A DNA stretch of 40,000 bases, taken from NCBI RefSeq assembly GCF_001017125.1, contig NZ_JXOJ01000008.1, positions 102,976 through 142,975 of the forward strand, in the 5' to 3' direction. The notes under the pieces were generated by a model, which did no database searches, was not told the DNA's origin, and was given only the letters and a program-made list of their open reading frames with translations. The stretch is from Methanoculleus sediminis (GTDB lineage Archaea; Halobacteriota; Methanomicrobia; Methanomicrobiales; Methanoculleaceae). The position numbers and the translations under genes were made by a program. Below, piece by piece: positions 9,372 to 30,578 of the stretch. Position 1 is the stretch's first letter; each line of letters starts with the position of its first letter.

Positions 9372-9470
9372 AGAGTAACGTTGGATTAAGGGGAGATTAA
9401 GGTAGGGGTCGGGTCGCGGGAGCCGGAGGGACGGCGATGCAGGAGGCCGGCTCACGGTCACAAAACTCCC

Positions 9471-14120: not shown

Positions 14121-14458
14121 ATAGTAGATCTCAGCAGAACCGACATATAAAAAGAGACGACTGGAACATATCGATTGGCGAAACATTTCGCCGGGGATTG
14201 CCTCAAGTATGAAGGAGGAATAAACTCCGAACCGTAGTATTCCGGTTTATCACTGTAGATGGGGCAAAATAAAAGATGCCTCCTGCAGATTCGGGATTGA
14301 GCAAATCAAGAGTTCGCTGAATACAGAAAAATGGTAGGTTAATATAGCCCCGATCCAAAATGGGTACTTATCGTATCGCAACAACCAGAGAGGGAAGATG
14401 GGAACGGGATCTACAGAGACAGCCTACCTTCTGCCCCCTCCGCAACGAGGCTCCCCCC

Positions 14459-15847: not shown

Positions 15848-16114
15848 CCTTCACTGAAGCATGCTCCATCCCCGGGACAGGTGAGCCGACGACATGAGCG
15901 AGGGGAAAGACCGGTTCCATGAGGAGATGTTTTCCGGGTTACCTGAACCAGCTCGTGATATTAGAGTGAACAAAAGAACAAACTACCGTCCCACAACGGA
16001 ACGGTAGCGAGTATAATAGGTACACATGCTGTACAATCCCATAAGTGGTTTTTGGTGCCACCAATCCAGATTGCGCCGTTATGGGCAAGTGAAAAAAGTA
16101 GACACCCTCCCCCA

Positions 16115-16498
16115 TCACTGCGCCGCCTTCTTCTCCTGCACCGGGGGGTTCTTGATCGTAACGTCGATCGACTTCGAGTTCTTCCCGCGAACCTCCACCT
16201 TGTAGGTGCCCGCTGCCGGGAACTTGTGCGCGAAGAACGCGTAGGTCTGCGGGCCACCGGCGGAGAGGTCCTGTTTCTTGCCGACCTGTTCGCCGTTGAT
16301 CCACAACTGCGCCTTGAAGTGCGTATCCCAGTCCGAAGACGGAACTCCTTCGTTGTCGAACCAGTAGCCGATGCTCACCGAGACGTTCGGGAAGAAATAC
16401 ACGTTGCCCTTCTCGTCGCGGCCGCCGCCGGTGCTGCCGCTGACCGTGGCAGTCGCTTCGACGGAGTTGATGGTTGCATCACGGTATGTTGGAGCCAT
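16115..16498 (-). CDS. Hypothetical small protein (beta-rich, no family recognised)
   Basis: 127 aa with balanced composition (…YFFPNVSVSIGYWFDNEGVPSSDWDTHFKAQLWINGEQVGKK…). The overlapping plus-strand ORF 16052-16525 is Arg/Leu-rich shadow sequence. Confidence 0.5.
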   Translation of the reverse strand: MAPTYRDATINSVEATATVSGSTGGGRDEKGNVYFFPNVSVSIGYWFDNEGVPSSDWDTHFKAQLWINGEQVGKKQDLSAGGPQTYAFFAHKFPAAGTYKVEVRGKNSKSIDVTIKNPPVQEKKAAQ

Positions 16499-16619
16499 GG
16501 TGCCACATTAATAAAAGTAGTATAATAAATTACGTGTCCGGTGCGTTGGTGCGGTCAGGTTTGTCAATATAGCGTGCGGGACCGTTTCGAAATCTGCCTA
16601 AATATCTTGAACTATCAGA

Positions 16620-17463
16620 GAGGTGATCCTAAAATTATAAGACCTCCAAAATAAAACCGGGGATCATGGTATTCCGGGAAATTGATGACGATCTCTGGGA
16701 GATTGTTCAGAAATACCTCCCACCAACGAAGCCGCACATTGGCCGACCGCGGTGTGACCCCCGCGGGTTGATCAACGGCATCCTGTACGTTCTGACCACC
16801 GGATGCTCCTGGCTCGATGTGCCGGTAAAGTACGGTACCAAATCGACGGTTCACCGGTACCACCTCGAACTCTGCGAGAAAGGAGTGTACCAGGCGATCT
16901 TCCTCGACCTCCTCCGATCTGGCTACGAGATCAAAAAGATCGATCTCTCGCACTGTTCTACCGATACCAAGGATATCCAGGCGAAAAAAGGGGATCGACT
17001 GGCTATGATGGCTATAAAAAAGTAAACGGCAACAAGCTGAGCGCTCTGGTCGATCGGCATGGTCTCCCCCTTGCCTGCACGGTTGCACCCGCAAATGTCC
17101 ATGATTCCCGGCTCTATGAGCCAACCCTCGAAGCATTTGAGATTCCCGAAGTGCAGGATCGTCCCGTGATCATCTCCGCAGATGCAGCCTATGATGCTCG
17201 GGAAATTCGTCAGTACAACCGGAAACGAGGAATTAAGAGCAATATTCCAGTCAACCGGAGATCCCGGAGATATCCGAAACGTGGGAGACCATTCTGGTTC
17301 GATCCGAAACTCTACAAGGAGCGCAATGCAGTAGAACGGTTCTTCAGTTGGATTGAGGCATTTAAGAAGATTGTCCCACGCTACGAGCGGTATGAACACT
17401 CATTCCTGGGATTGATTTACCTGGCATGTAGTGTCATGATCGGGAGAATATTGGGATGACCTC
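16620..17463 (+). mobile_element. IS5-family (IS427/IS1031-like) insertion sequence
   Basis: Imperfect terminal inverted repeats: gaggtgatcctaaaattat at 16620 versus the reverse complement of gggatgacctc ending at 17463 (about 15 of 20 matches by eye). A two-frame DDE transposase lies inside. The boundaries are approximate and no target duplication could be confirmed. Confidence 0.7.
16666..17459 (+). CDS. IS5-family DDE transposase, produced from orfA (16666-17025) and orfB (to 17459) by a programmed -1 frameshift
   Basis: orfA has an HTH-like N-terminus (LWEIVQKYLPP...GRPRCDPRGLINGILYVLTTGCSWLDVP). A slippery AAAAAAG lies at 16984-16990. The -1 frame continues GYDGYKKVNGNKLSALVD...ISADAAYD...ERNAVERFFSWIEAFKKIVPRYER, which is the DDE_Tnp_1 signature. 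Confidence 0.8.
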
Positions 17464-17497
17464 GTAGTCAATACCAACAACAAGGGCTTTCCGCATA

Positions 17498-17902
17498 TCA
17501 ATCTAATTCCCGTATTGCTGCCACAATTGATTCTGTGTTCCATTTTACAATTTTATTTGCTGCTTGCTTTACAACGCTGGATGTTTTTTCTGATCCCCAA
17601 GGTTCAATCGCTAAGATAGGTTTTCCATACTCTCGGGCAATTTCAATCTCTTTGTTAATCCACTTACTATATGTGGAGTAAACTCCTGCTAAGATGATAA
17701 TTACGCCACAAGGTTTAATTTTACGCTCTATTGCCTCTCGGAGTTCTTTATCAGTCCCATTTGTGTGAATTGGATCATTTCTGGGAACTGAATAATCAGA
17801 GTAAGAAAAATAGGGCCTATTCTTAAGTAATTCTGTTAAATTATTGTATTGATTACCATATGTCCACGAATGACTGATAAACAAATGATGGTGCTTTGAC
17901 AT
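17498..17902 (-). CDS. Stand-alone TIR-like domain protein (DUF1863 / MTH538-like, ThsB-like)
   Basis: 134 aa. The N-terminal strand HHLFISHSWTYGNQY, VIIILAGVYSTYSKWINKEIEIA and KPILAIEPWGS match the flavodoxin-like TIR-like fold family. The gene is very AT-rich compared with its surroundings. Confidence 0.65.
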   Translation of the reverse strand: MSKHHHLFISHSWTYGNQYNNLTELLKNRPYFSYSDYSVPRNDPIHTNGTDKELREAIERKIKPCGVIIILAGVYSTYSKWINKEIEIAREYGKPILAIEPWGSEKTSSVVKQAANKIVKWNTESIVAAIRELD

Positions 17903-18093
17903 AATTAACTCCCTTAAATAGCGTTAATTAACTATTCTTACATAAATAATTTTCTAATTATGTAATCACCTCTTCGATGCCCTCACTGCATCATAAGACT
18001 AATAGCATGCAATAAAATCTAGTCAGGCATTGAAACCCCAGGAAAGGTGTGCTCGCCCACAAGTGGACAATAAAAATGATTCTTCAGAGTACT

Positions 18094-18335
18094 AGAAGAT
18101 TCTGTCATCTACAAACAGTAAGATGATCACACAGGTTGGAAAACAAGACCCCAAATTTCCTCTGGAGATTCTGCAGCTGCGCTCCCCGATCACCGTCCAC
18201 AGGTTGTGAAACAAGACCCCAGATTTCCTCTGGAGATTCTGTATCTACGCCTCCCGATCACTGTCCACAGGCTGAGAAGAGACCCCAAATTTCCTCTGGA
18301 GATCCCATACCTATCCTACTTCCCATCTGTGTTCC
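18094..18335. repeat. Tandem array of a 68-bp unit (about 3.5 copies) abutting the left casposon target-site duplication
   Basis: Units are 18132-18199, 18200-18267 and 18268-18335, with a partial unit at 18094-18131. The first ~42 nt (caggttgKRaaacaagaccccaRatttcctctggagattctg) are nearly identical between units. The last ~26 nt are more diverged but still clearly homologous. Confidence 0.85.
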
Positions 18336-18343
18336 GGAATGCG
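18330..18343. repeat. Left copy of the 14-bp target-site duplication (tgttccggaatgcg)
   Basis: Identical 14-mer at 27691-27704, immediately outside the two TIRs. The bases flanking each copy differ, so the length is exactly 14 bp. Confidence 0.9.
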
Positions 18344-18452
18344 GGGTTATAGCTATTCAAAAAAAATTTGACATCTGTCACCTGTGGCATGATCACGGTG
18401 GTGGATGAAGTGGCCCCCTGACAGGACGATGGTGGGGCATGCTCTTCTGAAG
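18344..18452 (+). repeat. Left terminal inverted repeat of the casposon (109 bp, perfect)
   Basis: gggttatagctattcaaaaaaaatttgacatctgtcacctgtggcatgatcacggtggtggatgaagtggccccctgacaggacgatggtggggcatgctcttctgaag is the exact reverse complement of 27582-27690. Weaker similarity continues ~35 bp further inward. Confidence 0.95.
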
Positions 18453-18571
18453 TGGTGAGATGAGGGGACCATGCGCGGCATGTGGGACATGCCGTACCGG
18501 ATGCGGGGTTCCTGCTATAATGGGGTCGGTGGGAGGAACCACCTTATGATTCTCTATCCAACTTGACTCGA

Positions 18572-21223
18572 TTAATCGATCAGCCGTTTAACAGCTGGGG
18601 TGTTCAAATTAATATCCCCTGATTCTGTAATACGCCTCTTTATCTGTCTGAACGCTTCCCGACCGACGCCACGCATCTCGGCTTCTGCAGTGGACATCGC
18701 TAAAATTTGCTGCATAGTCGCGTCTTTATCTCTAAATATTTGCGGTTCTAACACGCTCAGCGGTTGCTCATCAATTTTGTTCGCCTCTTTACCTATGTAG
18801 ATCACTCCCTGGGCGTCGACGGGCCTCCGTGCAAGATAGCCGATGTCGCCTTTATATTTGTATTCGGGATGGCTAAAGTACTGAAGTATTGTTGTGCTGA
18901 GGGACTTGAAACAGTGCAGCCCGGACATCGTTTTCCCCGTGTTATAGTCGATAAATGGCTGATGCACTACGGTTTGCGGATAACCTGAGTACGCGGATAG
19001 AGGCTTGACTACCTTACCCTCGTTATTAATCGTCTGGAAACCCACGATAACGAAATTAAATGGCTTAATCGTTACATTCCAACGCTTGCGCTTATTCAGG
19101 TTAGAGAATCGGTTCCAAACCTGCGATGTGCTCACAGTCAGGCGGGAAAGCGCGTATAGATCCCTGTACTTCTCCATAATACTCCCCCTAGAGATCTTCC
19201 CGTAGTGTAGGCAGAGCAGATCACGCCAGATCTCTGCGTGCCAGTGTTCCGAACCCCTTGGATAGGGGTTAAGGAGATGACCGAGCCCGTGGAGCTTGTA
19301 GTCTATCAACTCAATTTCCCCGCCTTCATAGTAATAGAGAGCATAGCGTTTTGATGAAATCCCATAGAACCACACGTTAACCTTACCTGTTTCGATCTTC
19401 AAGATGGGGATATCAATACCATAGGGATTCAGCGGTTGGAAAAAGGCTGAAAGTTCGTTTGCATAATCCACGGGCGCAAAAACACTGTCTGTGTCCATGT
19501 ATGCGTGAGGGACCTCCCTAGCCTGCAGCCATGCCTCTGCCATAGCGAGGAGCAAGCGGGAGGCGGACGTGATCATAACTGCAAGAAATGGATTGAAAAA
19601 AAGGCCCGGTCTTTCAAACAGGTTTGCTTCTGTCGAGAAGCGGCCCAGCCCATACACGTCTAATGCAGTTTTGCGGTCCTCCGGGTTCAACTCTATGAAT
19701 ATCCCATAACTCATTGCATTGACGAGAATTTTCATTGCCTGTGCTCGGCTCTCCAGCAGTCCATGTTCAGGGTCATTCCTATCCATTCCCTTCATGCGTT
19801 GCTTGATTTTCTGCCGTTCCTCTACCAGTAACTGGATAAGGTTGTCTTTGCGTGGATCTACTGGAATTCCGAGGATTTCGGATTTCGTCAAATTGGGTTG
19901 CACACCCTTGGGGGTAAACCTGATCGCTTCGATGACCTCAGGCGCTTTCTTCGTCAGGATACATGAGGCAATGACATCGGGCAAAGCATACCACATGGGG
20001 GTGTCGGAGCTAAGGGGATTGATGCCCACGTTGAAGGATTCGCCACTCCCGTTATAGTCCATCCGGACGGGAAGGATATCCCCAGCCGGTTTGATCTTCA
20101 CCATGACAGTGAGCCCTCCCCAGTTACTTGGGTCCTGCAGGAACGCGAGATCGACATGTGCCAACAGATCGCGAACCTCTTCGGTCACGACCTTGGTATC
20201 TATCCACCTGGCAACAATGAACGGCCAGAGTTTGAGCAGCATGGTGACGGAGGGATACATGCTTGTAAAGTCAAGGACGGTGACCAGATGTGGTTTTTTG
20301 CGCACCCTGCATTCAGTTCGTCCACCGTAATAGGCTGTCATGATATGACCAACAGTGTTACTATCACCTGACAGGGGGGGCTGCCCAATGCCGAGCTGTT
20401 TAAGGGCGAATTTTGCAAGCGACGCAGAGCTATAGATCTTGGTAAGCGGAGCCTGGATCTGGTAAAGGTCTAATTCCGCACAGAGGCGCGTGTATACCTC
20501 AAACGTGGTTACAACATCGGTGATGAGATAATCGATATAATTCTCTGTAACCGTCCCATGTTCGTCAACGGTCATTTTCCGGGTTTTTGTGGCTAATTTT
20601 TCCGCTGCTTTCGCTAGTGGGATATGGCGGCTCTGTAAAAAAATTTCAGCGAGCCTCTGGACATCTAAAAAGTGTCCTGGGAAGTGAGGCGTATCACTCT
20701 TTTTCCTCAGGGATGAAAACTTAAAGGTGTAAGCCGTCCCCAACTGCTTCACGATTATACGGGGCTTGAACCTGTCGCTGGAAAGTATAAATGAAAATCC
20801 CCCCTTATTCCGCTTTCTCGACTTTGCTGCCTTCTTTGCGATCCGACTTACATCGAACGCGAGGTTGTATCCTATGCAGAGGGTGTGAAGTTCATATACC
20901 TCAGGATAGAACACATCGTCAATAAATTCGGGGAGCGAATACAACCCAATGTAGTTCTCCGTTGCATAGGACTTCAGCGTCGCCATCTCTTCCGTGGTGA
21001 GCAATGAAGGGTCGTGGAATAACCCTTCATGCTGTATGTATCCGTCGTGGTATACTCGAAAATACCCGATCTTGAGGTTCTGATAGGCATCTATGGTGGT
21101 TTCCGTATCGAAAACCAACACCCTGGAGTGCCGAAGTGGGGGATCCTTACGCTCTTTCGTGAAAAACGCTTTCGGGCACACTGTTTTTTGTGTGTACACC
21201 CGTAACGCCAGCTTATCCATCAC
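18572..21223 (-). CDS. polB: Family B DNA polymerase (casposon PolB)
   Basis: Exo I VLVFDTETT, Exo II GYNLAFDVSRI, Pol A VLDFTSMYPS, Pol B KILVNAMSYGIF, Pol C HAYMDTDSVF. The track start at 21223 is a GTG; an ATG follows at 21220. Both overlap the HNH gene's stop codon. Confidence 0.95.
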   Translation of the reverse strand: MMDKLALRVYTQKTVCPKAFFTKERKDPPLRHSRVLVFDTETTIDAYQNLKIGYFRVYHDGYIQHEGLFHDPSLLTTEEMATLKSYATENYIGLYSLPEFIDDVFYPEVYELHTLCIGYNLAFDVSRIAKKAAKSRKRNKGGFSFILSSDRFKPRIIVKQLGTAYTFKFSSLRKKSDTPHFPGHFLDVQRLAEIFLQSRHIPLAKAAEKLATKTRKMTVDEHGTVTENYIDYLITDVVTTFEVYTRLCAELDLYQIQAPLTKIYSSASLAKFALKQLGIGQPPLSGDSNTVGHIMTAYYGGRTECRVRKKPHLVTVLDFTSMYPSVTMLLKLWPFIVARWIDTKVVTEEVRDLLAHVDLAFLQDPSNWGGLTVMVKIKPAGDILPVRMDYNGSGESFNVGINPLSSDTPMWYALPDVIASCILTKKAPEVIEAIRFTPKGVQPNLTKSEILGIPVDPRKDNLIQLLVEERQKIKQRMKGMDRNDPEHGLLESRAQAMKILVNAMSYGIFIELNPEDRKTALDVYGLGRFSTEANLFERPGLFFNPFLAVMITSASRLLLAMAEAWLQAREVPHAYMDTDSVFAPVDYANELSAFFQPLNPYGIDIPILKIETGKVNVWFYGISSKRYALYYYEGGEIELIDYKLHGLGHLLNPYPRGSEHWHAEIWRDLLCLHYGKISRGSIMEKYRDLYALSRLTVSTSQVWNRFSNLNKRKRWNVTIKPFNFVIVGFQTINNEGKVVKPLSAYSGYPQTVVHQPFIDYNTGKTMSGLHCFKSLSTTILQYFSHPEYKYKGDIGYLARRPVDAQGVIYIGKEANKIDEQPLSVLEPQIFRDKDATMQQILAMSTAEAEMRGVGREAFRQIKRRITESGDINLNTPAVKRLID

Positions 21224-21528
21224 GTGTCCACTCCCTTATGGGCCTGATCGATGCACTGTTGTCCCCACACTACGGCGAGCGCTCCTATGCTTACTCCGAT
21301 AAACGGACACCCCTTTCTGTCCTTCGGTGGAAGTTTGTTTTGTTCGGCGGTGATTTTTGCGTGGCAATTCTTGCACAGCGGAACTTCCAGCCATGAAAGT
21401 TTCCTTCCAAATACGTGATGGAGCTCGATCACGCTGCGATCACTTTCCCCACAGGCTATACAACAAATCTTGGCATCGCCATCCCTGATCATTTTCAGGA
21501 TTGCTTCCCGATATGTGTCTTTATGCAT
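21220..21528 (-). CDS. HNH endonuclease
   Basis: CIACGESDRSVIELHHVFGRK...PLCKNCHAKIT (CxxC...HH...CxxCH zinc/HNH motif). Translationally coupled to polB. Confidence 0.85.
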   Translation of the reverse strand: MHKDTYREAILKMIRDGDAKICCIACGESDRSVIELHHVFGRKLSWLEVPLCKNCHAKITAEQNKLPPKDRKGCPFIGVSIGALAVVWGQQCIDQAHKGVDT

Positions 21529-21534
21529 AGATCC

Positions 21535-22188
21535 TCACAGATCCTCCGTATGATAGATCTCAAAGAATTCCGGCTCTTCCTGCATTTCGTGGTACAGATA
21601 GAGTTTGTCCAGGTCGGTCTCGAAGTAGTGGGCAACACCGTGCGCATCGAGAACCCTCTTACCGACAAACTCTGCCAACGCGGATTGATTACGCGCCTCA
21701 AGCGCATCGCTCACCGCCGCCATGTATCTACCAATGAGCGACCGGTCCTGGCTTTTCGCGGTGACAACAGACCTAATCCCCATGTCCCGCACGAAAAAGC
21801 TCATTTCGACTTCGATCGTGTCAGATGGTGCACACCGTAGCGTCCGCTGTTTTTGGTCCCAGCAGAGGTAGTATGGTGCAAGATGGGCAAGCACCTCACT
21901 CTCTGTCAGCCCAACCGCGCTTATTGCGCTCTGGAACTCCGCCCCCGCCCGTAATTGACGCAGCGCATTTACGGCGAGTGAACGGATACATTTCTGCTGG
22001 GGGGTTAGGTCCTCCCACCGGGTTCGTGTGAGCGTGTGATCCGCGTACCGCACTTGTACCAGTTCTTTCCGGGTTTGGTCGGGACAGAGGTGATGTTTAA
22101 GGTGTATCCGTCGTGCATACCTGCTCTCTGCTCGCACAACCTTAGCCCAGTCATCGTAGGTTGGATACCCACGTGCAAATTGTCCCAT
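21535..22188 (-). CDS. Hypothetical casposon protein (first gene of the hyp-HNH-polB operon)
   Basis: Open frame with protein-like composition. The likely start is MGQFARGYPTYDDW at 22188; the track start is 22257. No family recognised. Confidence 0.5.
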   Translation of the reverse strand: MGQFARGYPTYDDWAKVVRAESRYARRIHLKHHLCPDQTRKELVQVRYADHTLTRTRWEDLTPQQKCIRSLAVNALRQLRAGAEFQSAISAVGLTESEVLAHLAPYYLCWDQKQRTLRCAPSDTIEVEMSFFVRDMGIRSVVTAKSQDRSLIGRYMAAVSDALEARNQSALAEFVGKRVLDAHGVAHYFETDLDKLYLYHEMQEEPEFFEIYHTEDL

Positions 22189-22340
22189 AGTTACCAGTTG
22201 ATTACGCCCCTCCTGTGGCCTACCGGCGTGTCCCAGCCAAGATGAGCCGCGGACCAATCCCCTGGCCCAATCATCAATTTACAGGGCCGGCGGTGCTCAA
22301 ACGCGACCTTAATCGATCGTTCCATACACCAGATGGATTG

Positions 22341-22445
22341 TGTTTTGGATATATAATTGTATCTTTTGGTAACATCTTTGGTAGTAACTTTTGGGCTTAA
22401 AATTGGGCCGATAAAGATTGGCGGTACATAATCATTAAATATAAG
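22341..22445. promoter_or_regulatory. Divergent promoter/operator region of the casposon, with phased T-tract-GG motifs and a TATA-like box
   Basis: Six TTGG motifs preceded by T-runs sit at about 22345, 22366, 22378, 22391, 22403 and 22418, mostly 12-15 bp apart. A TATA-like ttaaatataag lies at 22435-22445, about 46-56 nt upstream of the ATG at 22491. Confidence 0.3.
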
Positions 22446-22490
22446 TTAGCGATATAGATTACTTCGATAGCGAAAATACAGGGGTTAAGG

Positions 22491-23408
22491 ATGAGGATTC
22501 GCGAGTTTGATGAAAAAATCCTGTCAGAACTTGAGCAGGCCGGGTATATCCGCAGGAAGGACCTCCTTGAGGTTCTGAAAGCGAAGTATGCAAAAGAGAA
22601 AGGGTTTAGCACCACTTCGCTCAATCGAAGGATTGGCGAGCTAATCAGCGCTGGCAAAATCGGGGTTATCGAACCAGCGGAGTTTGCAGAGTATGGCATC
22701 TCTGACGAGGATAAACGTGCGAAGTACCTCATATCAGGCCCTTATGCCGATAAGAAAAGAGTTGTCGACGGCCTAATAGCCAAGTCTTCAACAGGCGATC
22801 AATTCGAGAAGCGCCTCGCACTCAAGGAAATCAAGCGTAACTTGGCTGAGTACTCCTTAAACCCCGTCCAGTTATCCCGCCTGTCGACGTGTTTGGGTGC
22901 TGATGAGGATACAGATAAACTGGTTATTGAAATCCTGCACGAAGCCCTCCTTAAACAGAGATCATGCATTGGTGAGGAGGAACGGGCATCATTAATCGGA
23001 GACGTAAGCCAAGCACTTGGTGCATATACCCTCCCTCCGGTCAATACAAGTAAAAATCTCTTGTTGGAGATACTAGGGTTTTTTTCCGATGAGTTCATGG
23101 TAGAGATGCTGAAAGTGGATCTTGAAAGAGTTGAAGGCGAAAAGGAGTTGTTATCTAAAGAGGACGACGAAGTTCGGAAAAAGACGTGGATAAAGACCGT
23201 CTATCATTCAAAATACCTCATCCATGCGTTTGAAGAGAATATAGACAGCCTCCTCGAGCAGATGTGGAAATACAATGAGATGGGGAAAAAGGAAGGACAC
23301 CAGGACGAGCGTAAAATTGCGTTAATCATTGATGACCTTCTCGATTACATAGCCGAAAACAGAGATAAGGCTGTCTACTATGAGAAGATGTGTGGAGCCC
23401 GGAAATGA
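22491..23408 (+). CDS. Winged-helix (wHTH) protein of unknown function, upstream of and coupled to cas1
   Basis: The N-terminus FDEKILSELEQAGYIRRKDLLEVLKAKY....TSLNRRIGELISAGKIGVIE looks like a wHTH. The stop overlaps the cas1 start (ATGA at 23405-23408). Confidence 0.6.
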   Translation: MRIREFDEKILSELEQAGYIRRKDLLEVLKAKYAKEKGFSTTSLNRRIGELISAGKIGVIEPAEFAEYGISDEDKRAKYLISGPYADKKRVVDGLIAKSSTGDQFEKRLALKEIKRNLAEYSLNPVQLSRLSTCLGADEDTDKLVIEILHEALLKQRSCIGEEERASLIGDVSQALGAYTLPPVNTSKNLLLEILGFFSDEFMVEMLKVDLERVEGEKELLSKEDDEVRKKTWIKTVYHSKYLIHAFEENIDSLLEQMWKYNEMGKKEGHQDERKIALIIDDLLDYIAENRDKAVYYEKMCGARK

Positions 23409-24637
23409 AGTTCATGCTGCTCAACGGGCATGGGATCCGCATGAATATCGACGGTGCAAAGCTCCATGTCCGGGATGGGAAGTTCTCCACAAAAGAGGAG
23501 CCTGCATCCTATGTTTTCGCACCGAAGAAGATCGATGTTGACTCAATCGCCATCTATGGGCAGAGCGGGACCATCTCCATCCCTGCTATACGCTGGTTGG
23601 TCAAGCAGGGTGTGCAGGTGTCGGTGCTCAACTGGGACGGGAAGTTGCTCACCACGATGCTCCCGCCTGAGAGCGTCCAGGTGAAGACAAAGTTTGACCA
23701 GTACCGTGCCTACGAGAATATAGGGCTCAGGATACAGATTGCCCGGAAACTGATCGAAGCTAAGTTCGCGCGGACACGGCTTGTTCTCGACTACCTGGGA
23801 CAGAGATACACGAACATTGGTACGGATATTGAACGGGATGCTTCCAAGCTCAGTGACACAAATACGATCCGGGAAGTAATGGGTGTTGAGGGGGCAGTTG
23901 CACAGTTATATTGGAGTGAATTTCAGAAGATTATCCCGGATAAGTATGAGTTTGACGGGCGGAACATCGGCAAGACGGGCCGCCCGATGGGAGCCGTAGA
24001 CCACGTGAACTGCATGCTAAACTACGGATATTCATTGCTGGAAGCGGAGTGCCTGCGAGCCATCAACAGCACTGGCTTGGACGCACACGTTGGCTTCCTC
24101 CACGAGATGCAGGCCGGGAAATATAGCCTCGCCTATGACCTGCAGGAGCCGTTCCGGTTCTTGGTGGATCTCGCCGTGATCACCCTCATAGAAAGTGAGG
24201 CTATGGCGAAAGGCGACTTTGTCCGGACCGAGAACTATAACCTCCGTCTCCGACCTGCTGGCGCACGCAAAGTCACCGAAGAGGTCAACCGGTGGTTCAA
24301 CAAGGTAGTGGAGTATCAGGGGAAGGAAACCGTGTGGAGTTATGTCATCTTCCTCAAGACCAGGGAACTTGCACATTATCTCACCGAGAAGAAGCGGAAA
24401 CTTGACTTTGCATCACCCTCCTACGAGATCGACCGGCAGGACTCCGATGAGATGCGCCGGAAGATACTTGCGATCCCATACGCCGAGTGGAAGAAGATGG
24501 GGTTCTCCAAGGGGACGCTGTTTTACCTGAAGAAGAACGCGCGGGACGGGAAGCCGTTCACGATGAACAAGCATGTGCGGGAGCGGCTGGAGCAATGGGA
24601 ATGTTATGAAGATTTACCACTTGGATCTCCCGTATAA
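23405..24637 (+). CDS. cas1: Cas1-family integrase (casposase) with a C-terminal HTH
   Basis: The Cas1 catalytic region NCMLNYGYSLLEAECLRAINSTGLDAHVGFLHEMQAGKYSLAYDLQEPFRFLVD contains the conserved His and acidic residues. The N-terminal beta domain reads MKFMLLNGHGIRMNIDGAKLHVRDG. The C-terminal YAEWKKMGFSKGTLFYLKKNA is HTH-like. The track ORF starts at 23390; the ATG at 23405 is favoured because of the ATGA coupling. Confidence 0.92.
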   Translation: MKFMLLNGHGIRMNIDGAKLHVRDGKFSTKEEPASYVFAPKKIDVDSIAIYGQSGTISIPAIRWLVKQGVQVSVLNWDGKLLTTMLPPESVQVKTKFDQYRAYENIGLRIQIARKLIEAKFARTRLVLDYLGQRYTNIGTDIERDASKLSDTNTIREVMGVEGAVAQLYWSEFQKIIPDKYEFDGRNIGKTGRPMGAVDHVNCMLNYGYSLLEAECLRAINSTGLDAHVGFLHEMQAGKYSLAYDLQEPFRFLVDLAVITLIESEAMAKGDFVRTENYNLRLRPAGARKVTEEVNRWFNKVVEYQGKETVWSYVIFLKTRELAHYLTEKKRKLDFASPSYEIDRQDSDEMRRKILAIPYAEWKKMGFSKGTLFYLKKNARDGKPFTMNKHVRERLEQWECYEDLPLGSPV

Positions 24638-24959
24638 CTGTTATAGGTCTGACCCCCCTTTTTAAGTGATTGCTTAATGTATCCTACCTATCCCCTCCAG
24701 GCCACGTGGATGTAAGTTTTGGGTGCACTGGAAGGAACCTGACGTGCCAAAATATCAACCCCATCGAGATCAGTATGGAGGGTCGAGATTACTTCACGGA
24801 GGTAGGTTTGCACGGGACGGATACAACACCTCCCACAGATGCATTCCATTACTATAGGCCATCTCTCATAGAAGCCACAAAATAAAATAACCGCGTTTAA
24901 TGAGGAAATAAAATCCATAAATATTAAATGTCTGTCAACCAATTTCGTATAAGTGCTCC

Positions 24960-25934
24960 ATGTCTGTATCAGTTGCTGAGTACCTAGGTCAACGAACCGA
25001 CGTCGAAACCCCGATTATTCAACCTGTAGAGCCAGGGTCTGAACCGCCATGTCCATTTATGGGGACATATTGTCCCAAAGTAAAAAAAAAGCAGGCACCA
25101 GTCTGTTCTGTCAGAAAATCCGATGGCACGTTGTGGATTGTCTGCCCCGATAGGCTCTGCTCTACTAAAAAGAATATCCCTAAGACACAGCAACCGCTCC
25201 CCCTTTCGAATTATCAAAAAGAAATTTTACACAGTGTTGCGAAAACGCTTTATGGAGACAGCGTCCCCCCTTCTGAAATATATTATAAGCGTGAAGAAAA
25301 GATTGAAGTGATCGACGGCACTGACTACCGGGCTGATTTTATTATGTTTAGAAAGCATGGAGTATGCTTTGATCCCCGTAGGGCAGTCGTAGAAATGCAA
25401 GGAGGCGGGGAAACCTCTCAGACTAAAAATCTAACCAATCATGTCAAGGCGTTTGAGCGAAATCCAGAACGTACAAACCAAATGTTGGCCCAAATTGTCG
25501 ATGGTGTTGGAACAATTGAAACAAATGCATGGCGCCGACAGCAGGAGCAATTTATCGTCAAAGGGAACATTGCCCAGCAGACAGGTGGGCAGATGGTCTT
25601 CTGCATGGGGTCTCTTTTATACGACTATCTCTGGAAGCGAATCAGCGACGCAAAGTTAAACAACCTACGGGATTTTAACTGGACGCTAGCGCTCATTGCG
25701 TTTGTTGAAGATACATCACAAGAGCCACAACCAGGGCCTATACCCATAAAAATCGATGAGGACCGCTTGCTCTTTACAAATTACCATACATTCGTCCAAG
25801 CGCTCATCAATCAAGGTGGACCATCCGCTACTCTGTTTAGGGGTGAATTCTTTTGCTTAGATGGAGACAGAATTAACCTGAGCCAGCAAGCATTAGGCGA
25901 AAATAGATGCTGTTTGAATTTTAAGAGGTTTTAA
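24960..25934 (+). CDS. Putative type II restriction endonuclease, NotI-family-like
   Basis: The N-terminal Cys cluster CPFMGTYCPKV...APVCSV....GTLWIVCPDRLC resembles the Fe-Cys4 motif of NotI as I recall it (CPF...C...C...W.VCP.R). A PD-(D/E)xK-like core follows: YRADFIMF...AVVEMQGGG (D...E.Q). It is convergent with an m5C MTase 4 bp away. Confidence 0.55.
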   Translation: MSVSVAEYLGQRTDVETPIIQPVEPGSEPPCPFMGTYCPKVKKKQAPVCSVRKSDGTLWIVCPDRLCSTKKNIPKTQQPLPLSNYQKEILHSVAKTLYGDSVPPSEIYYKREEKIEVIDGTDYRADFIMFRKHGVCFDPRRAVVEMQGGGETSQTKNLTNHVKAFERNPERTNQMLAQIVDGVGTIETNAWRRQQEQFIVKGNIAQQTGGQMVFCMGSLLYDYLWKRISDAKLNNLRDFNWTLALIAFVEDTSQEPQPGPIPIKIDEDRLLFTNYHTFVQALINQGGPSATLFRGEFFCLDGDRINLSQQALGENRCCLNFKRF

Positions 25935-25938
25935 TCCC

Positions 25939-26835
25939 TTATTTTGGATAATAGTGACTATCTACATTTAAGATCCGTCGTCCGATCCACTCAATAACAT
26001 GCACATTCACTGCATTACCTATTGCTCGGTGCCGGTTTCCGTCCATCCCCGGGGGAACCCCTGTAATTGCTCGCATTCCAAAGGGGTCAGCCGTCGAACA
26101 AACAGCATCTGCTCCCCCTCTTGAATCGAGTGTATATGTTTCCCCGTCATTTCTGTACCCTTTGGCTTGCGGTCCAGCTGTATGCTTTCTTCCAATTGCG
26201 GCATGCTGGATAGCATAGAGATCTGTTTCTCTATTGCGCTTTTGAGTTCCTCTGGCAAGGGCTTCCCACTTGCCAAGGCCCGCTCGAGGAGCGATTGTAG
26301 TTGCTCCCGGTTCAAAAAGTACCTCGGCGGACACGAGAGAGCCAAGACTTCCGACAACATAGACTCTTCGCCGTCTCTGTGGTGTTCCAAAGTATTTTGC
26401 ATCCAGTACTCGCCACGATATGCCATACCCGAGTTCATCCAGCGCTTGGATGAGTGCTTGGAAATCCTTTCCACTGTTACTGTTAAGAATTCCGGGAACA
26501 TTCTCAATAATAATCCAGCGAGGTCTTCTTGCTGATATGAGTTCTGCAAATTGGAAGAATAATCCACTTCGATCACCTTTAAGCCCTTTTCGCTTCCCCT
26601 GGTTAGCGAGAGAAAGATCTTGACATGGAAACCCTCCACACCAAAGATCCGCATCTGGTATTTCGCTGGCCTTTACATCTTTAATATCGCTTACAAGCGG
26701 CACATTAGGCCAATGCTTTTTCAGGACGCGCTGGCAAAATGGGTTTATTTCACATTGGAAGACTATCTTCATGCCAATATTCTCAAACCCGAGATCGAAC
26801 CCACCAATACCGCTGAAAAACGACGCTACTTTCAT
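25939..26835 (-). CDS. DNA (cytosine-5) methyltransferase
   Basis: Motif I FSGIGGFDLG, motif IV GGFPCQDLS, motif VI IIENVPGIL, motif VIII QRRRRVYVVG, motif X IGNAVNVHV. Confidence 0.95.
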   Translation of the reverse strand: MKVASFFSGIGGFDLGFENIGMKIVFQCEINPFCQRVLKKHWPNVPLVSDIKDVKASEIPDADLWCGGFPCQDLSLANQGKRKGLKGDRSGLFFQFAELISARRPRWIIIENVPGILNSNSGKDFQALIQALDELGYGISWRVLDAKYFGTPQRRRRVYVVGSLGSLVSAEVLFEPGATTIAPRAGLGKWEALARGTQKRNRETDLYAIQHAAIGRKHTAGPQAKGYRNDGETYTLDSRGGADAVCSTADPFGMRAITGVPPGMDGNRHRAIGNAVNVHVIEWIGRRILNVDSHYYPK

Positions 26836-27284
26836 TTTACCACTGGCTTTTGTGCATTCTCACTTTCTTTGAGATCTAACAAGGATTTCAATGCGCTGAT
26901 TAATCTGTCTTCATGTTTTACGTCACACTCCCAAATAACAATTACTTTCCATCCGTCAGATTCTAGCATTCTCTGATTTTCTTTGTCACGGGCGATATTT
27001 TTCTCAATTTTTGGAATCCAATAATCTGTGTTTGATTTTGGTTTGCGAAGTCCGCTTCCGATTTTGCATGAATGCCCATGCCAAAAACAGCCATGTACAA
27101 AGATAACAGTCCGATATTTTGGTAAAACGATATCCGGCTTACCTGGGAGGTCTTTCTGATGTACCCTGTACCGAAAGCCATGAGAATACAGAAACCTTCG
27201 GACAACTAATTCAGGAGATGTATTTTTAGCCTTAATCTTACTCATTATTTGACTGCGTTTTTCCTTGGGGAAGATATCAGGCAT
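26832..27284 (-). CDS. vsr: Very-short-patch repair endonuclease (Vsr)
   Basis: KRSQIMSKIKAKNTSPEL, LPGKPDIVLPKYRTVIFVHGCFWHGH and GWKVIVIWECDV align well with E. coli Vsr as I recall it. It overlaps the downstream MTase gene by 4 bp. Confidence 0.9.
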   Translation of the reverse strand: MPDIFPKEKRSQIMSKIKAKNTSPELVVRRFLYSHGFRYRVHQKDLPGKPDIVLPKYRTVIFVHGCFWHGHSCKIGSGLRKPKSNTDYWIPKIEKNIARDKENQRMLESDGWKVIVIWECDVKHEDRLISALKSLLDLKESENAQKPVVK

Positions 27285-27581
27285 TACTATATCCGTAGGC
27301 GTAGCACCTAATTAATTTAAGGAGGGGCGAATATTGGTGGGTACGCTCAACTGTATGCCCAGTTCCCATCACAGACCTTTTACTCGTGCAACTCACTGCC
27401 GCTCGCTTCCCGGAATCAAATAGATGGTACCCCTAACTACCTACGGATAGAATCCTCCACTAGATACCAATGCTCGTTCGTTCTGGTGGGTGCACGTCAC
27501 TACTACACCATACGTGCCGATGAAAAGTCAGTAAACCACTTGACCCCACCTCCCGCGCGAGGTGGTCACTCCTCCCAAACC

Positions 27582-27690
27582 CTTCAGAAGAGCATGCCCC
27601 ACCATCGTCCTGTCAGGGGGCCACTTCATCCACCACCGTGATCATGCCACAGGTGACAGATGTCAAATTTTTTTTGAATAGCTATAACCC
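27582..27690 (-). repeat. Right terminal inverted repeat of the casposon (109 bp, perfect)
   Basis: Exact reverse complement of 18344-18452. It ends ...gaatagctataaccc immediately before the TSD. Confidence 0.95.
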
Positions 27691-27704
27691 TGTTCCGGAA
27701 TGCG
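27691..27704. repeat. Right copy of the 14-bp target-site duplication (tgttccggaatgcg), overlapping the tRNA-Leu 3' end
   Basis: Identical to 18330-18343. Its last 4 nt (tgcg, 27701-27704) are the discriminator base plus the first 3 nt of the acceptor stem, as the complement of the minus-strand tRNA. Confidence 0.9.
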
Positions 27705-27785
27705 AGGGGTGGGATTCGAACCCACGGACCCCTTCGGGACCGGATCTTAAGTCCGGCGCCGTTGGCCGGGCTTGGCTACCCTCGC
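27701..27785 (-). tRNA. tRNA-Leu (anticodon UAA)
   Basis: The minus strand reads GCGAGGGTAGCCAAGCCCGGCCAACGGCGCCGGACTTAAGATCCGGTCCCGAAGGGGTCCGTGGGTTCGAATCCCACCCCTCGCA. It folds by hand into a cloverleaf: 7-bp acceptor stem, anticodon stem CCGGA/TCCGG with loop CTTAAGA, a long variable arm (CCC-GAA-GGG), and T arm GTGGG-TTCGAAT-CCCAC. No CCA is encoded. Confidence 0.9.
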
Positions 27786-27933
27786 TCGAAAAGTGCCATT
27801 ACCTATTCTCCACCGCATGTATTAAGTCCGACGCCCGCATGCCGCCGGCGAAAACCCGGATCCGGCAGCCGTTCTCCAGGGCGACTCCCGGGGCCAAAGG
27901 TATTTGAGGACGGGGCCGAAGATTGGAGGCTGC

Positions 27934-28395
27934 ATGGAGAGAGACCGTAACCCGGACAGTCCCGAAGTGCCCTACTGGCACGTCCGGACCGACGAGAACG
28001 GCGTGAGCCGGCAGGACCGCTGCCGGATGAGCGACTTTCAGTTCGCAAGCGTATCGAGCGGTGCCGCACCGTCGTGGATCGGGAGGCCCGGCGACCCGGC
28101 TCGCCGCGTCGTCGTCCTCGTCCTCCCCGCGGGCTGGGTCGGCGAGTGGCATGAGAACCCGGAGCCGCAGTGGATCGTGCCCCTGTCGGGGCGCTGGTTC
28201 GTCGAGACCATGGACGGCACCCGCGTGGAGATGGGGCCGGGGGAACTCTCGTTCGGGAACGACCAGAACACCCGGCCTGACCATCGGGGGCGCAGGGGAC
28301 ACCGTTCCGGAACCGTAGGTGACCAGCCCGCGGTGCTGATGCTCGTCCAGGTGGAGCGCGGGCCCGACCCCGGCCGGCCGTGCCTGGAGGGATAG
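27934..28395 (+). CDS. Cupin-domain protein
   Basis: GEWHENPEPQWIVPLSGRWFVETMDGTRVEMGPGELSF resembles the two-motif cupin barrel. The ATG at 27934 is preceded by ggagg; the track start is 27904. Confidence 0.5.
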   Translation: MERDRNPDSPEVPYWHVRTDENGVSRQDRCRMSDFQFASVSSGAAPSWIGRPGDPARRVVVLVLPAGWVGEWHENPEPQWIVPLSGRWFVETMDGTRVEMGPGELSFGNDQNTRPDHRGRRGHRSGTVGDQPAVLMLVQVERGPDPGRPCLEG

Positions 28396-28524
28396 CAAGA
28401 CCTGATCGTGGAGGCATAGACCCAACTCCTGAACTCCGCGGCTCGAAGCCTACGGCTTCTCAAACTCCTTCCCCAAAGGGAAGTCGTTCTTCGCGTAAGT
28501 TAGTAGGTGCAGATAGCAATATAA

Positions 28525-28608
28525 TCTCACGCGAAGCCGCGAAGGACGCGAAGATCGGCTTATCCGAGAGGGGACCCCCCTTCGCGGCTTCGCGCTCTTC
28601 GCGTGAGA
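28525..28608. repeat. Palindromic element built from (NN)GCGAAG sub-repeats, copy 1
   Basis: tctcacgcgaagccgcgaaggacgcgaag ... cttcgcggcttcgcgctcttcgcgtgaga: inverted arms of ~29 nt around a ~26-nt centre. It is related to the element at 39650-39840. Small hairpins lie just upstream (gaagcctacggcttc, cttccccaaagggaag). Confidence 0.75.
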
Positions 28609-28724
28609 TGACGATTTATGAGCGATGGTACGGCCTCATGCGAAGTGCGACGGACGGAACGTCCGGGGCATGAGCACCGTTAAGTACGAAGACACGAAGG
28701 GAATGCGAACCCGGGGAGAAACCG

Positions 28725-29354
28725 ATGACTCGAACCAGGATCAATCTCGCGGCGCTCTCGCTCGCGGTTGCAGGCGCCTGCTTCTTCGCGTATCCCGCGA
28801 TCCGGCCGTACACCGATGAAGCGTCCCTCGCCGGCGCCGGGGCGTTCGCCTCCCCCGCCTGGACCCTCTCGCACACGCTCGCCATGGTCGGGTTCATCCT
28901 GCTCGTGCTCGGGCTGCTCGGCCTCTACGGCCGCCTCCGGGAGACAGAGGCCGAACCCCGGGCCGTCGCGGCGCTCGTCCTGACCTGGGCCGGCGTCGGG
29001 CTGGTTCTCCCCTACTACGGGGCCGAGACGTTCGCGCTCGCCGCCGTGGGCCGGGAAGCACTCCAGCAGAACAGCGTCGACCTCCTCCTCGCGCTCACGG
29101 ACGCGATCCGGTTCGGGGAAGGCGTCTGGCTCTTCGGTGCGGGCCTCCTCGCCCTTGCGGCAGGCAGCATCCTCTTTGCAGCCGCGATCCGGCGCTCGGG
29201 CATCCTCCCCCGGTGGAGCGGCATCCCGCTCGCGCTCGGCTTCGCGCTCTTCCTCCCGCAGTTCTTCACGCCGCCGGCGGTCCGGATCGCCCACGGGCTG
29301 CTCGTCATGATCGGGTGCTGGCTCGTGGCGTGGAGCATGACGAAACGCCGGTAG
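28725..29354 (+). CDS. Hypothetical integral membrane protein
   Basis: 209 aa with about six hydrophobic segments (LAALSLAVAGACFFAY, MVGFILLVLGLLGLY, and others). No family recognised. Confidence 0.6.
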   Translation: MTRTRINLAALSLAVAGACFFAYPAIRPYTDEASLAGAGAFASPAWTLSHTLAMVGFILLVLGLLGLYGRLRETEAEPRAVAALVLTWAGVGLVLPYYGAETFALAAVGREALQQNSVDLLLALTDAIRFGEGVWLFGAGLLALAAGSILFAAAIRRSGILPRWSGIPLALGFALFLPQFFTPPAVRIAHGLLVMIGCWLVAWSMTKRR

Positions 29355-29360
29355 CCGGCT

Positions 29361-30536: not shown

Positions 30537-30578
30537 ATAACCAGTATTGAGCGTCTCAAAAGAAAAATGCCGGGTATC

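Follow-up and report, generated by a model that had tools for sequence, protein, structure and literature searches.

Genes and features of the locus

Casposons are transposons moved by a Cas1 integrase. The window analysed here, a stretch of 40,000 nucleotides from Methanoculleus sediminis, to which protein matches of 100% also point as the host, holds a Cas1 gene and a DNA polymerase gene in a segment of 48.5% GC, against 63-67% in the host flanks, which is bounded by terminal inverted repeats (TIR) and by a short target site duplication (TSD). The features are as follows:

18330-18343, no strand: left TSD copy, a 14-mer direct repeat that flanks the left TIR
18344-18452, plus strand: left TIR, 109 nt exact, pairing more weakly as far as 18471; tip GGGTTATAGCTATT
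18572-21223, minus strand: family B DNA polymerase (PolB), 882-883 aa, from a GTG start at 21223 or an ATG at 21220; PF03175/PF00136
21220-21528, minus strand: putative HNH-like nuclease, 102 aa, with an invariant CxxC..HH..CKNCH; its stop overlaps the polB start
21535-22257, minus strand: conserved core ORF of unknown fold, 240 aa if read from a TTG but more probably 217 aa, with its start at ATG 22188
22491-23408, plus strand: core protein of 305 aa, conserved, weakly matching a winged HTH at its N-terminus; its stop codon and the cas1 start codon overlap (ATGA)
23405-24637, plus strand: casposase (Cas1 homolog), 410 aa; catalytic triad E162/H233/E248, HTH at the C-terminus; PF01867, 6OPM
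24960-25934, plus strand: putative type II restriction endonuclease, 324 aa, with an N-terminal Cys cluster and an invariant D126..E145-x-Q147 on adjacent beta strands
25939-26835, minus strand: C-5 cytosine DNA methyltransferase, 298 aa, strong profile match
26832-27284, minus strand: Vsr very-short-patch (T:G mismatch) repair endonuclease, 137-150 aa, strong profile match
27582-27690, minus strand: right TIR, exact over 109 nt
27691-27704, no strand: right TSD copy, whose last 4 nt are CGCA, the tRNA 3' end
27701-27785, minus strand: intact host tRNA-Leu(UAA), the integration target (ARAGORN; Rfam tRNA match of 56 bits)

A sequence-only reading of this DNA had placed 109-bp inverted repeats at these positions, and they were reproduced computationally: the two are exact reverse complements over 109 nt, and the repeat finder extended the pair to 128 nt at 93%. 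The further similarity that had been seen inward of them is real but spans about 19 nt and not about 35. The inner part of the repeat has probably decayed in M. sediminis, because the TIR of a 91%-identical casposon (L015) measures 131 nt at 97%. In the window the 30-nt TIR tip is found at only two sites, which are the two TIRs (shuffled sequences expect 0), and the tip GGGTTATAGCTATT is conserved in the relatives L002, L003, L005, L015, L018 and L019. The window contains exactly two copies of the 14-mer direct repeat that had also been claimed, TGTTCCGGAATGCG, one at 18330-18343 and the other at 27691-27704. The repeat consists of CGCA plus 10 nt, which is the target signature of M. mazei, and its right copy overlaps the final 4 nt of the tRNA-Leu(UAA) gene as called by ARAGORN, an overlap that had been proposed.

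The casposase and the conserved core

The product of cas1 matches PF01867 (E=1.5e-67), and among solved structures its best match is the casposase crystallised from M. mazei, of which it is an ortholog (6OPM; E=2.7e-174, 583 bits, residues 1-400, 63% identity). The active site published as E162/H232/E247 (PMC6977970) corresponds in the alignment to E162/H233/E248 of the M. sediminis protein, so that the proposed Cas1 homolog keeps its catalytic triad.

The polymerase had been recognized from its motifs and is also supported by profiles, since it matches PF03175/PF00136 above their cut-offs. It contains DTETT, NLAFD, SMYPS, KILVNAMSYG and YMDTDS, corresponding to Exo I/II and Pol A/B/C, and orthologs of 882-891 aa are present in L002, L003, L005 and L015. 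A search of solved structures with its sequence gave no significant match. The HTH-like tail at its C-terminus resembles the HTH of Cas1 (E=2e-4), and such a similarity has been described as a trait of family 2 (PMC4046053).

The genes called an HNH nuclease and a winged-HTH protein in the earlier reading are less certain. The pattern CxxC..HH..CxNCH and the gene order stood, but the profile E-values were not significant, neither for the HNH-like ORF (Pfam HNH E=0.12; PDB HNH 4H9D E=0.1) nor for the 305-aa protein, whose match to HTH_24 (E=0.009) is below the cut-off. Both assignments are putative and are based on motifs and synteny. The 305-aa protein has orthologs of 285-311 aa in the relatives. 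A Pfam search with the ORF at 21535-22257 returned no match; positional orthologs of this core ORF of about 215 aa, with 213-219 aa, are found in all relatives.

The order PolB, HNH-like ORF of 102-112 aa, ORF of about 215 aa, ORF of about 300 aa and Cas1 is kept in L002, L003, L005 and L015, and the core is syntenic in every relative fetched. All five core ORFs of M. sediminis are full length when compared with their orthologs.

The cargo

The 2.9 kb downstream of cas1 are occupied by cargo, namely the genes encoding a putative restriction endonuclease, an m5C methyltransferase and a Vsr protein, the gene of the latter overlapping the methyltransferase gene by 4 nt. These three had been left among the unknown proteins in the sequence-only reading, which was incomplete in this respect. 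The endonuclease call is putative and is founded on the database name and the gene neighbourhood; Pfam, NCBIfam and PDB sequence searches with this protein gave no match, and a Foldseek search with its confident model (pLDDT 88.7) gave no significant one. The convergent endonuclease-methyltransferase pair is kept in Paenibacillus, with 55% and 67% identity, respectively.

The casposon of L015 is 91% identical to that of M. sediminis over 18344-24593 and then unrelated up to the right TIR, and the restriction-modification (R-M) and Vsr genes are absent from it. The region downstream of cas1 is a swappable cargo slot, which here holds a bacterial-type R-M and Vsr cassette. Its role is plausibly that of a defence or addiction module.

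Target site, empty sites and identity of the element

At the M. sediminis junction and seven others we observed ...C(T/C)CGCA plus 10 nt, followed by GGGT(T/A)ATAG, adjoining a tRNA-Leu gene, the casposons of the relatives occupying the tRNA-Leu(UAA), (GAG), (UAG) and (CAG) genes. This rule agrees with the 14-bp, CGCA-initiated TSD overlapping 4 nt of tRNA-Leu that was published for M. mazei casposons (PMC4779613, PMC6977970), a parallel that the earlier reading had drawn correctly.

An empty site, which had been suggested as a check, was found in four related contigs (L007-L010). Their flanks encode an aminotransferase, a cupin, the tRNA-Leu(UAA) and ThsB as at the M. sediminis locus, and one 14-mer, CGCATTCTGGAACA, is followed directly by the left flank, CAGATGGGAAGTAGG, with no element between them. 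In L008/L010 one position of the single 14-mer is changed, in L007/L009 a 13-mer variant takes its place, and the tRNA-side flank diverges by 8-10%; these are related lineages and not isogenic strains.

We conclude that positions 18344-27690 are, with very high probability, a complete family 2 casposon of M. sediminis, 9,347 bp long and integrated site-specifically at the 3' end of tRNA-Leu(UAA). The casposase homology, the core synteny, the TSD of CGCA plus 10 nt and the empty site all agree with the classification first made from the sequence. The element is a textbook family 2 casposon and a fresh example of an already known type.

If the M. mazei ortholog is taken as the model, the Cas1-type casposase would act as a tetramer that holds both 3'-...CTATAACCC ends and joins the two to opposite strands, 14 bp apart. 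Gap filling would then duplicate the 14-mer and leave the tRNA intact. The PolB of the element is presumed to copy the casposon, and accessory roles are presumed for the HNH-like nuclease and for both conserved core proteins.

Alternative explanations

The alternative that survives best, and which we consider possible though rather unlikely, is that the casposon is genuine but an immobile relic inherited vertically, its perfect ends reflecting a recent insertion and not ongoing activity. Only one copy is visible in the window, because the window spans a single locus, and the sole other exact copy that was found (L001/L012, Logan SRR21730149) occupies the same site. Moreover, measurements on M. 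mazei MetMaz-C1 gave low excision frequencies (PMC10359463), and decayed casposons are known from M. burtonii (PMC4779613). Against this, the TIRs and the TSD are perfect, the five core ORFs are full length and the catalytic triad is intact. Presence and absence of the element vary among related lineages, and a 91%-identical element lies at a different tRNA-Leu gene in another Methanoculleus. The M. sediminis casposon may still be mobile at present.

We give very little credence to another type of tRNA-targeting integrative element (a provirus, an integrative plasmid or a pipolin-like PolB element) that is moved by a tyrosine or serine recombinase and carries Cas1 as a passenger. A tRNA 3' end is a classic att site, the element resembles pipolins in carrying a PolB and defence cargo (PMC11551731), and a low-GC island is found nearby. 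However, none of the eight ORFs matched a recombinase or integrase, and capsid or packaging genes were not found. The element terminates in inverted repeats, beside a 14-bp duplication, and not in direct att repeats with a tRNA fragment, no further 11-mer of the tRNA region being repeated in the window.

That cas1 is a remnant of a CRISPR-Cas adaptation module and the repeats a coincidence is refuted in practice. Generic Cas1 models do match the protein strongly, and NCBI names an identical protein 'CRISPR-associated endonuclease Cas1', but none of the subtype-specific CRISPR Cas1 models reached its cut-off and the best CRISPR Cas1 match scored 136 bits against 583 for 6OPM. As the earlier reading had stated, no CRISPR-like array was found, nor any Cas2 among the ORFs scanned; the C-terminal HTH, the linkage to polB, the TIR, the TSD and the empty site also speak against such a remnant.

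It is just as hard to credit a group 1 'Cas1-solo' gene, of a group said to be restricted to Methanomicrobiales, as the host is, and not to be mobile (PMC4046053), when the protein is a full-length ortholog, HTH included, of a Methanosarcinales casposase, and when its linkage to polB and an HNH-like gene and its TIR/TSD bounds are traits of group 2, the casposons (PMC4046053).

Comparison with known systems

The M. sediminis casposon closely resembles the family 2 casposons found at tRNA-Leu in M. mazei (e.g. MetMaz1FA1A3-C2; casposase 6OPM). They share a casposase (63% identity across 400 aa, triad and C-terminal HTH included), a core of PolB, HNH, two more conserved proteins and Cas1, a 14-bp TSD that starts with CGCA and overlaps the final 4 nt of tRNA-Leu, and a TIR tip of GGG(A/T)TATAG..TA, ending in CCC-3' (PMC4779613, PMC6977970). 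Of 16 positions compared between the M. sediminis tip and the M. mazei end, 10 are identical, the terminal CCC-3' included. Nevertheless the hosts differ, M. mazei belonging to the Methanosarcinales and M. sediminis to the Methanomicrobiales (Methanoculleus, about 65% GC). In Methanoculleus the TIR reaches 109-131 nt and exceeds the 31-mer used for M. mazei. The 10 nt that follow CGCA in M. sediminis (TTCCGGAACA) are not rich in AT, and its cargo is the putative R-M and Vsr cassette.

The casposon of the Methanoculleus sp. 10 MAG (L015, GCA_913757945.1) has 91% nucleotide identity from the left TIR through cas1, with the same TIR tips, a 14-bp CGCA TSD and a tRNA-Leu target. It differs in its target, tRNA-Leu(GAG) and not UAA, in its longer TIR (131 nt at 97%) and in its cargo, which comprises DUF4352, DUF2085 and a small ORF in place of R-M and Vsr. 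Both this casposon and L016-L019, its relatives from metagenomes, carry no annotation other than Cas1.

In Methanoregula formicica SMSP (L003, CP003167) the same five-gene core order adjoins a tRNA-Leu(GAG), with the 14-bp TSD CGCATACGTTTCTT, and defence-type cargo (GmrSD_N) again follows cas1. Its Cas1 is only 66% identical, and the element is much larger: its outer TIRs lie about 14.9 kb apart and enclose a second inverted repeat.

AciBoo-C1 of Aciduliprofundum boonei, also of family 2, is alike by published description: it has a Cas1-HTH casposase, site-specific insertion at a tRNA 3' end, a 14-15-bp TSD and a DNA methyltransferase in its cargo (PMC4046053, PMC6977970). However, it resides in a distant host lineage and targets tRNA-Pro, where recognition needs the TSD plus 15 bp.

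Finally, the Cas1-Cas2 integrase of CRISPR-Cas adaptation has in common with the casposase the Cas1 fold and catalytic residues, as well as two staggered transesterifications followed by duplication of the target, which in CRISPR is the repeat. The casposon has neither Cas2 nor an array and its duplication is of 14 bp, against 25-50 bp in CRISPR; the C-terminal HTH belongs to the casposase, and what is integrated is a 9-kb element instead of a spacer.

Element boundaries and target site

A repeat search of the window identified two inverted-repeat arms (18344-18471 and 27563-27690) of 128 nt and 93% identity, and a base-by-base comparison showed that the outermost 109 nt of both are exact reverse complements. 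In the published set, the terminal inverted repeats (TIRs) of casposons span 25-602 nt (PMC4046053). The 3' end of the TIR reads ...CTATAACCC-3', and its 30-nt tip has only two sites within the window, one at each arm end, with 0 expected in shuffles. Directly outside each arm lies the 14-mer TGTTCCGGAATGCG, which occurs exactly twice in the window. The right copy shares four nucleotides (27701-27704) with the 3' end of a tRNA-Leu(UAA) gene (27701-27785, minus strand), the sole tRNA found by ARAGORN in the 40 kb. This tRNA was also matched by Rfam (56 bits), the Rfam scan of the window giving no other match. The 9,347 bp between the duplications have a GC content of 48.5%, against 63-67% in the surrounding host DNA. 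Apart from the target site duplication (TSD), the window was found to contain no further att-like repeat of the tRNA 3' region, such as would bound a larger island.

The exact TIRs, the duplicated 14-mer and its overlap with the last four tRNA bases, as described in the sequence-only reading, were all reproduced. The weaker similarity said to continue inwards past the 109 nt is present, but it extends for about 19 nt and not 35.

A site at 18501-18518 (ATGCGGGGTTCCTGCTAT), 160 nt within the element and past the TIR, matches the left junction ATGCG/GGGTTATAGCTAT at 15 of 18 positions. Chance may account for this likeness; alternatively the site may be a remnant of a former end, or a subterminal binding site.

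Gene content

Genes of the casposon (coordinates, strand, product)
18572-21223, minus, family B polymerase (PolB); PF03175 E=3.7e-9 and PF00136 E=5e-7, both above cut-off
21220-21528, minus, HNH-like protein of 102 aa; CxxC..HH..CKNCH motif, profiles weak
21535-22188/22257, minus, conserved core protein of 217/240 aa; positional orthologs in relatives, no family match
22491-23408, plus, conserved core protein of 305 aa; weak wHTH match
23405-24637, plus, Cas1 of 410 aa; PF01867 E=1.5e-67, TIGR00287 E=4.9e-60
24960-25934, plus, protein of 324 aa; no family match
25939-26835, minus, m5C DNA methyltransferase; PF00145, TIGR00675
26832-27284, minus, Vsr; PF03852, TIGR00632

Several of these genes are tightly packed and overlap by 4 nt, and the scan of the element's ORFs gave neither a recombinase nor a capsid gene nor Cas2. 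The polymerase carries the motifs DTETT, NLAFD, SMYPS, KILVNAMSYG and YMDTDS (Exo I/II, Pol A/B/C). It had no match among PDB sequences; synteny and 62-91% nucleotide identity make it an ortholog of the polymerases in other family 2 casposons, a family whose type is the RNA-primed (PolB3-like) and not the protein-primed one.

In family 2 the core includes an HNH endonuclease and two more conserved proteins with HTH domains. The small ORF next to polB has weak profile scores: HNH proteins are its top PDB matches at E=0.1-0.2, and Pfam HNH gives E=0.12. Its residues C23xxC26..H37H38..C52-K-N54-C55-H56 are unchanged in four orthologs, and it adjoins polB in all relatives compared (L002, L003, L005 and L015, contigs carrying related casposons). 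Both further core ORFs have positional orthologs in every relative; the 305-aa protein matches HTH_24 at E=0.009, below cut-off, and Pfam profile searches gave no HTH match for the 217/240-aa protein.

Cas1 as the casposase

Searched against all PDB sequences, Cas1 has as its top match 6OPM, the casposase of Methanosarcina mazei (E=2.7e-174, 583 bits, 63% identity), with residues 1-400 aligned to chain residues 18-416; the highest-scoring CRISPR Cas1 in the PDB, 4N06, reaches 136 bits. Residues E162, H233 and E248, which lie in GVEG, GFLHE and DLQEPF, align to E162, H232 and E247 of the M. mazei protein, which form its active site (PMC6977970). The alignment extends across the C-terminal HTH domain, which is required for integration in the casposase (PMC6977970). 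In addition, 51 aa of the Cas1 tail can be aligned to the tail of PolB (E=2e-4), and like HTH tails on these two proteins are a family 2 trait (PMC4046053). The best 120 database homologs are all from Methanomicrobia, including M. burtonii and M. psychrophilus, and those that carry a name are annotated 'CRISPR-associated Cas1'. Judged by this homology, Cas1 is a casposase, nearer to known casposases than to CRISPR Cas1. A Methanoculleus sediminis protein, WP_048185621.1/KLK87259.1, matches it at 100% identity under the public name 'CRISPR-associated endonuclease Cas1'; that label is corrected here, the protein being a transposase.

A role in a CRISPR-Cas adaptation module is very unlikely, the neighbours of cas1 being a wHTH-like protein and a putative endonuclease, with no cas2 beside it. 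Consistent with what had been noticed from the sequence alone, namely a Cas1 homolog with neither cas2 nor a CRISPR array, the PF01867 match and the catalytic triad were found, ORF scans gave no cas2, the repeat search gave no CRISPR-like spaced repeats in the 40-kb window, and no subtype-specific CRISPR Cas1 model scored above cut-off.

A Cas1 peptide scan of the genome contig collection gave no match. One member of the cluster of Cas1 proteins at least 90% identical is labelled as a 'Bacteroidales bacterium' MAG on a 3.5-kb contig, which is probably a binning error.

The empty site

Related contigs (L007-L010) were obtained by exact-protein look-up of the ThsB-like TIR-domain gene that flanks the casposon on the left (17498-17902). 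They contain an aminotransferase, a 207-aa ORF, a cupin protein, tRNA-Leu(UAA) and ThsB, and lack the casposon. A BLASTN comparison shows these contigs running from window positions 28386-27692 straight into 18346-17464, the two matches overlapping by 16 nt. At the junction, L008 and L010 read ...CCCCTCGCATTCTGGAACA/CAGATGGGAAGTAGG, that is, a single 14-mer with one mismatch and then the left flank of the window, and L007 and L009 have a 13-mer variant at this place. The empty site proposed as a check, tRNA-Leu(UAA) followed by a single 14-mer, thus exists in related lineages, and the pattern of presence and absence is as expected for a transposon insertion with target duplication.

After excision, the restored empty site of M. 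sediminis itself would read ...CTCGCATTCCGGAACACAGATGGG. The exact junction of tRNA and TSD had no match in the genome or metagenome contig collections; the empty sites carry a one-base difference in the 14-mer, and the host contig is apparently not in the collections. Exact-protein look-ups of the host aminotransferase and the 209-aa ORF also gave no match. The only other exact copy of the element found was in Logan SRR21730149, at the same site.

The flanking island to the left

The flank on the ThsB side (17464-18346) is 99.1-99.7% identical to the empty-site contigs, whereas the tRNA side (27692-32041) is only 90-92% identical (compared with L007-L011), and the break in identity falls exactly at the 3' end of tRNA-Leu. 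This inequality suggests a recent exchange of the ThsB island between lineages that did not involve the casposon. That the island is a casposon remnant was rejected, there being no TIR-tip motifs in it or in the empty-site contigs.

An IS4/IS5-type element (16666-17459, with DUF4096 and DDE_Tnp_1 ORFs in two frames) abuts the ThsB-like gene (17498-17902, minus strand). In L007, L009 and L011 a Peptidase_C14 (caspase-like) gene follows the ThsB gene, and a second ThsB_TIR gene follows it in L007-L009. Since the homology of the window to L007-L011 ends at 17464, the IS seems to have removed, or taken the place of, part of a candidate defence cluster of TIR-caspase type.

The space from the ThsB start to the left duplication holds three tandem units of 66-68 bp (18130-18313, 86% matches), which are also present in the empty-site contigs and have no Rfam match; they are not CRISPR, because the copies are alike throughout. 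About 5.5 kb between the host genes and the casposon (~13000-18330) have a GC content of 42-55% (host 60-67%). This low-GC stretch encodes a Schlafen/AlbA_2, HATPase_c_4 and HTH protein (14360-15847), and a homologous Schlafen-type architecture is found at 15852-17261 of L003 (Methanoregula formicica SMSP, CP003167), just beyond the distal end of its casposon.

The cargo slot

The casposon of Methanoculleus sp. 10 (L015, MAG GCA_913757945.1) matches the window at 91% nucleotide identity over 18344-24593, which spans the left TIR up to the cas1 end, and is unrelated from there up to the right TIR; its cargo consists of DUF4352, DUF2085 and a small ORF. In M. formicica the place after cas1 is occupied by a GmrSD_N protein; in the window it is taken by the 324-aa protein together with the methyltransferase and Vsr. 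Downstream of cas1 there is thus a cargo slot able to hold a restriction-modification cassette.

The methyltransferase (PF00145 E=1.3e-57, TIGR00675 E=6.8e-60) is full length with respect to a 297-aa Paenibacillus homolog, and Vsr, a T:G mismatch endonuclease, is recognized by PF03852 (E=4.5e-37) and TIGR00632 (E=4.6e-46). The 324-aa protein is 100% identical to an M. sediminis database protein that NCBI names 'NotI family restriction endonuclease', and had no sequence match in Pfam, NCBIfam or PDB. Its nearest other homologs are ~55% identical, the named ones being bacterial (Paenibacillus, Brevibacillus, Treponema, Clostridia), and in Paenibacillus the homolog is convergent with a methyltransferase 67% identical to that of the window. 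D126 and E145-x-Q147, on adjacent strands, are invariant, as is an N-terminal Cys cluster. A Foldseek search of the AlphaFold model (pLDDT 88.7) against the PDB gave nothing significant, NotI being absent among the matches listed. From the model and the invariant residues we infer features that would fit a PD-(D/E)xK-type nuclease with a metal-binding module, and the protein is a putative restriction endonuclease paired with the methyltransferase.

Other casposons have been reported with DNA methyltransferases alone or a putative restriction endonuclease alone (PMC4046053), and the cassette of restriction, modification and Vsr genes is therefore an increment and not a new principle.

Mechanism and activity

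Based on its sequence, the element is a family 2 casposon. The initial assignment to this family was correct: the anatomy with its TIRs, the orthology to a casposase of known structure and biochemistry, the target signature (a 14-bp CGCA duplication at tRNA-Leu) and the insertion polymorphism were all observed here.

The steps of a possible mechanism can be drawn from the work on M. mazei and A. boonei (PMC6977970, PMC10359463, PMC4046053). By analogy, a tetramer of the casposase would direct the 3'-OH groups of the ...ACCC ends against the two strands of the tRNA-Leu end, with a stagger of 14 bp, and repair would next copy the 14-mer, the tRNA being kept. PolB would replicate the casposon, with the HNH-like protein and the two core proteins probably assisting, and the restriction-modification and Vsr cassette would aid retention of the element or defence of the host. 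Casposase-dependent integration or excision has been demonstrated for A. boonei and M. mazei only (PMC6977970, PMC10359463).

The case for a recent insertion of the M. sediminis element is strong, and the element may still be active today. It is a tentative and rather unlikely proposition that, both taken together, the casposon is active in a cultivable Methanoculleus and a whole restriction-methylase-Vsr cassette of bacterial type has been captured in its post-cas1 slot. If true, the casposons of Methanomicrobiales would be exchangeable carriers of defence or addiction modules, hopping among the tRNA-Leu UAA, GAG, UAG and CAG genes by means of their common ...CTCGCA 3' end, and the chromosome would be rearranged when copies sitting at different tRNA-Leu genes recombine, as L005 suggests.

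The CRISPR adaptation machinery is presumed to descend from casposons, of which, to our knowledge, few have been studied so far. The element is unusually clean: its ends match perfectly and its core is intact, related lineages supply a natural empty site, and a close relative occupies another tRNA-Leu gene. It is well suited to experimental work and is a second candidate for tests of casposition in vivo. A search of the literature library gave no paper that names casposons together with Methanoculleus. The text of the 2016 casposon survey gives Methanosarcinales as the source of all its new family 2 elements; the present element may already be listed elsewhere.

Relatives and the tRNA-Leu target rule

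The Cas1 of L002 is 81% identical to that of the window, and those of L003 and L005 (a Methanoculleus MAG) 66%; L015 and L016 (Methanoculleus sp. 10) come from the cluster of P0001, the best match, with a 90% identical Cas1. L002, L003, L005 and L015/L016 have a common core order, with PolB, the HNH-like ORF and a ~215-aa ORF, and a divergent ~300-aa ORF with Cas1. A tRNA-Leu gene adjoins the casposon in every relative.

tRNA-Leu genes and duplications at the insertion sites (source, tRNA-Leu, duplication where listed)
Window, UAA, CGCATTCCGGAACA
L002, UAA, CGCATTTGCTCATC
L018 and L019, UAA
L003, GAG, CGCATACGTTTCTT
L015/L016, GAG, CGCATTCTATCTTT (L015)
L005, UAG and CAG

All junctions read ...C(T/C)CGCA plus 10 nt, followed by GGGT(T/A)ATAG, and a 14-bp duplication is present at every insertion whose two ends are both available.

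In L005 (ERZ27245514 k141_263687) the stretch 3663-11856 holds a casposon flanked by inward-facing tRNA-Leu genes, UAG at 3663-3746 (plus strand) and CAG at 11772-11856 (minus strand); each side has CGCA with a differing 10 nt and there is no duplication. This suggests recombination between two copies at different tRNA-Leu genes, inverting the intervening segment. The left TIR of L005 also contains the tip and an inverted tip inside 37 bp.

The inner inverted repeat of L003 (4555-4663 and 13185-13293, 109 nt, 82%) is nested in the outer TIRs (681-784 and 15459-15562). Its arms overlap polB (4532-7183) at the 3' end of that gene, and the sequence that lies downstream of GmrSD_N.

L002 (JGI 3300005665) lies at the orthologous chromosomal locus, with DUF555, PfkB, DUF2070 and tRNA-Leu(UAA). 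At 13302-13420 of this contig, straight after the distal duplication, a second, differing TIR tip starts (GGGTTATAGTTAGTAGTGG...), a sign that another casposon, or what is left of one, lies in tandem, as described in Methanosarcina.

The TSD of the M. mazei type is 14 bp long with a conserved CGCA start and overlaps the last 4 bp of tRNA-Leu (PMC4779613, PMC6977970), and its specificity in vitro needs the TSD and 30 bp of the tRNA gene (PMC6977970). The window and its relatives have the same TSD signature as the M. mazei casposons, and this target rule, established by experiment as CGCA plus 10 nt at the 3' end of tRNA-Leu, is thereby widened to another methanogen order and four isoacceptor genes. 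When compared with the M. mazei end (the reverse complement of GAGTTACCTATATCCC), the TIR tip described here matches at 10 of 16 positions, including the terminal CCC-3' contacted by the casposase.
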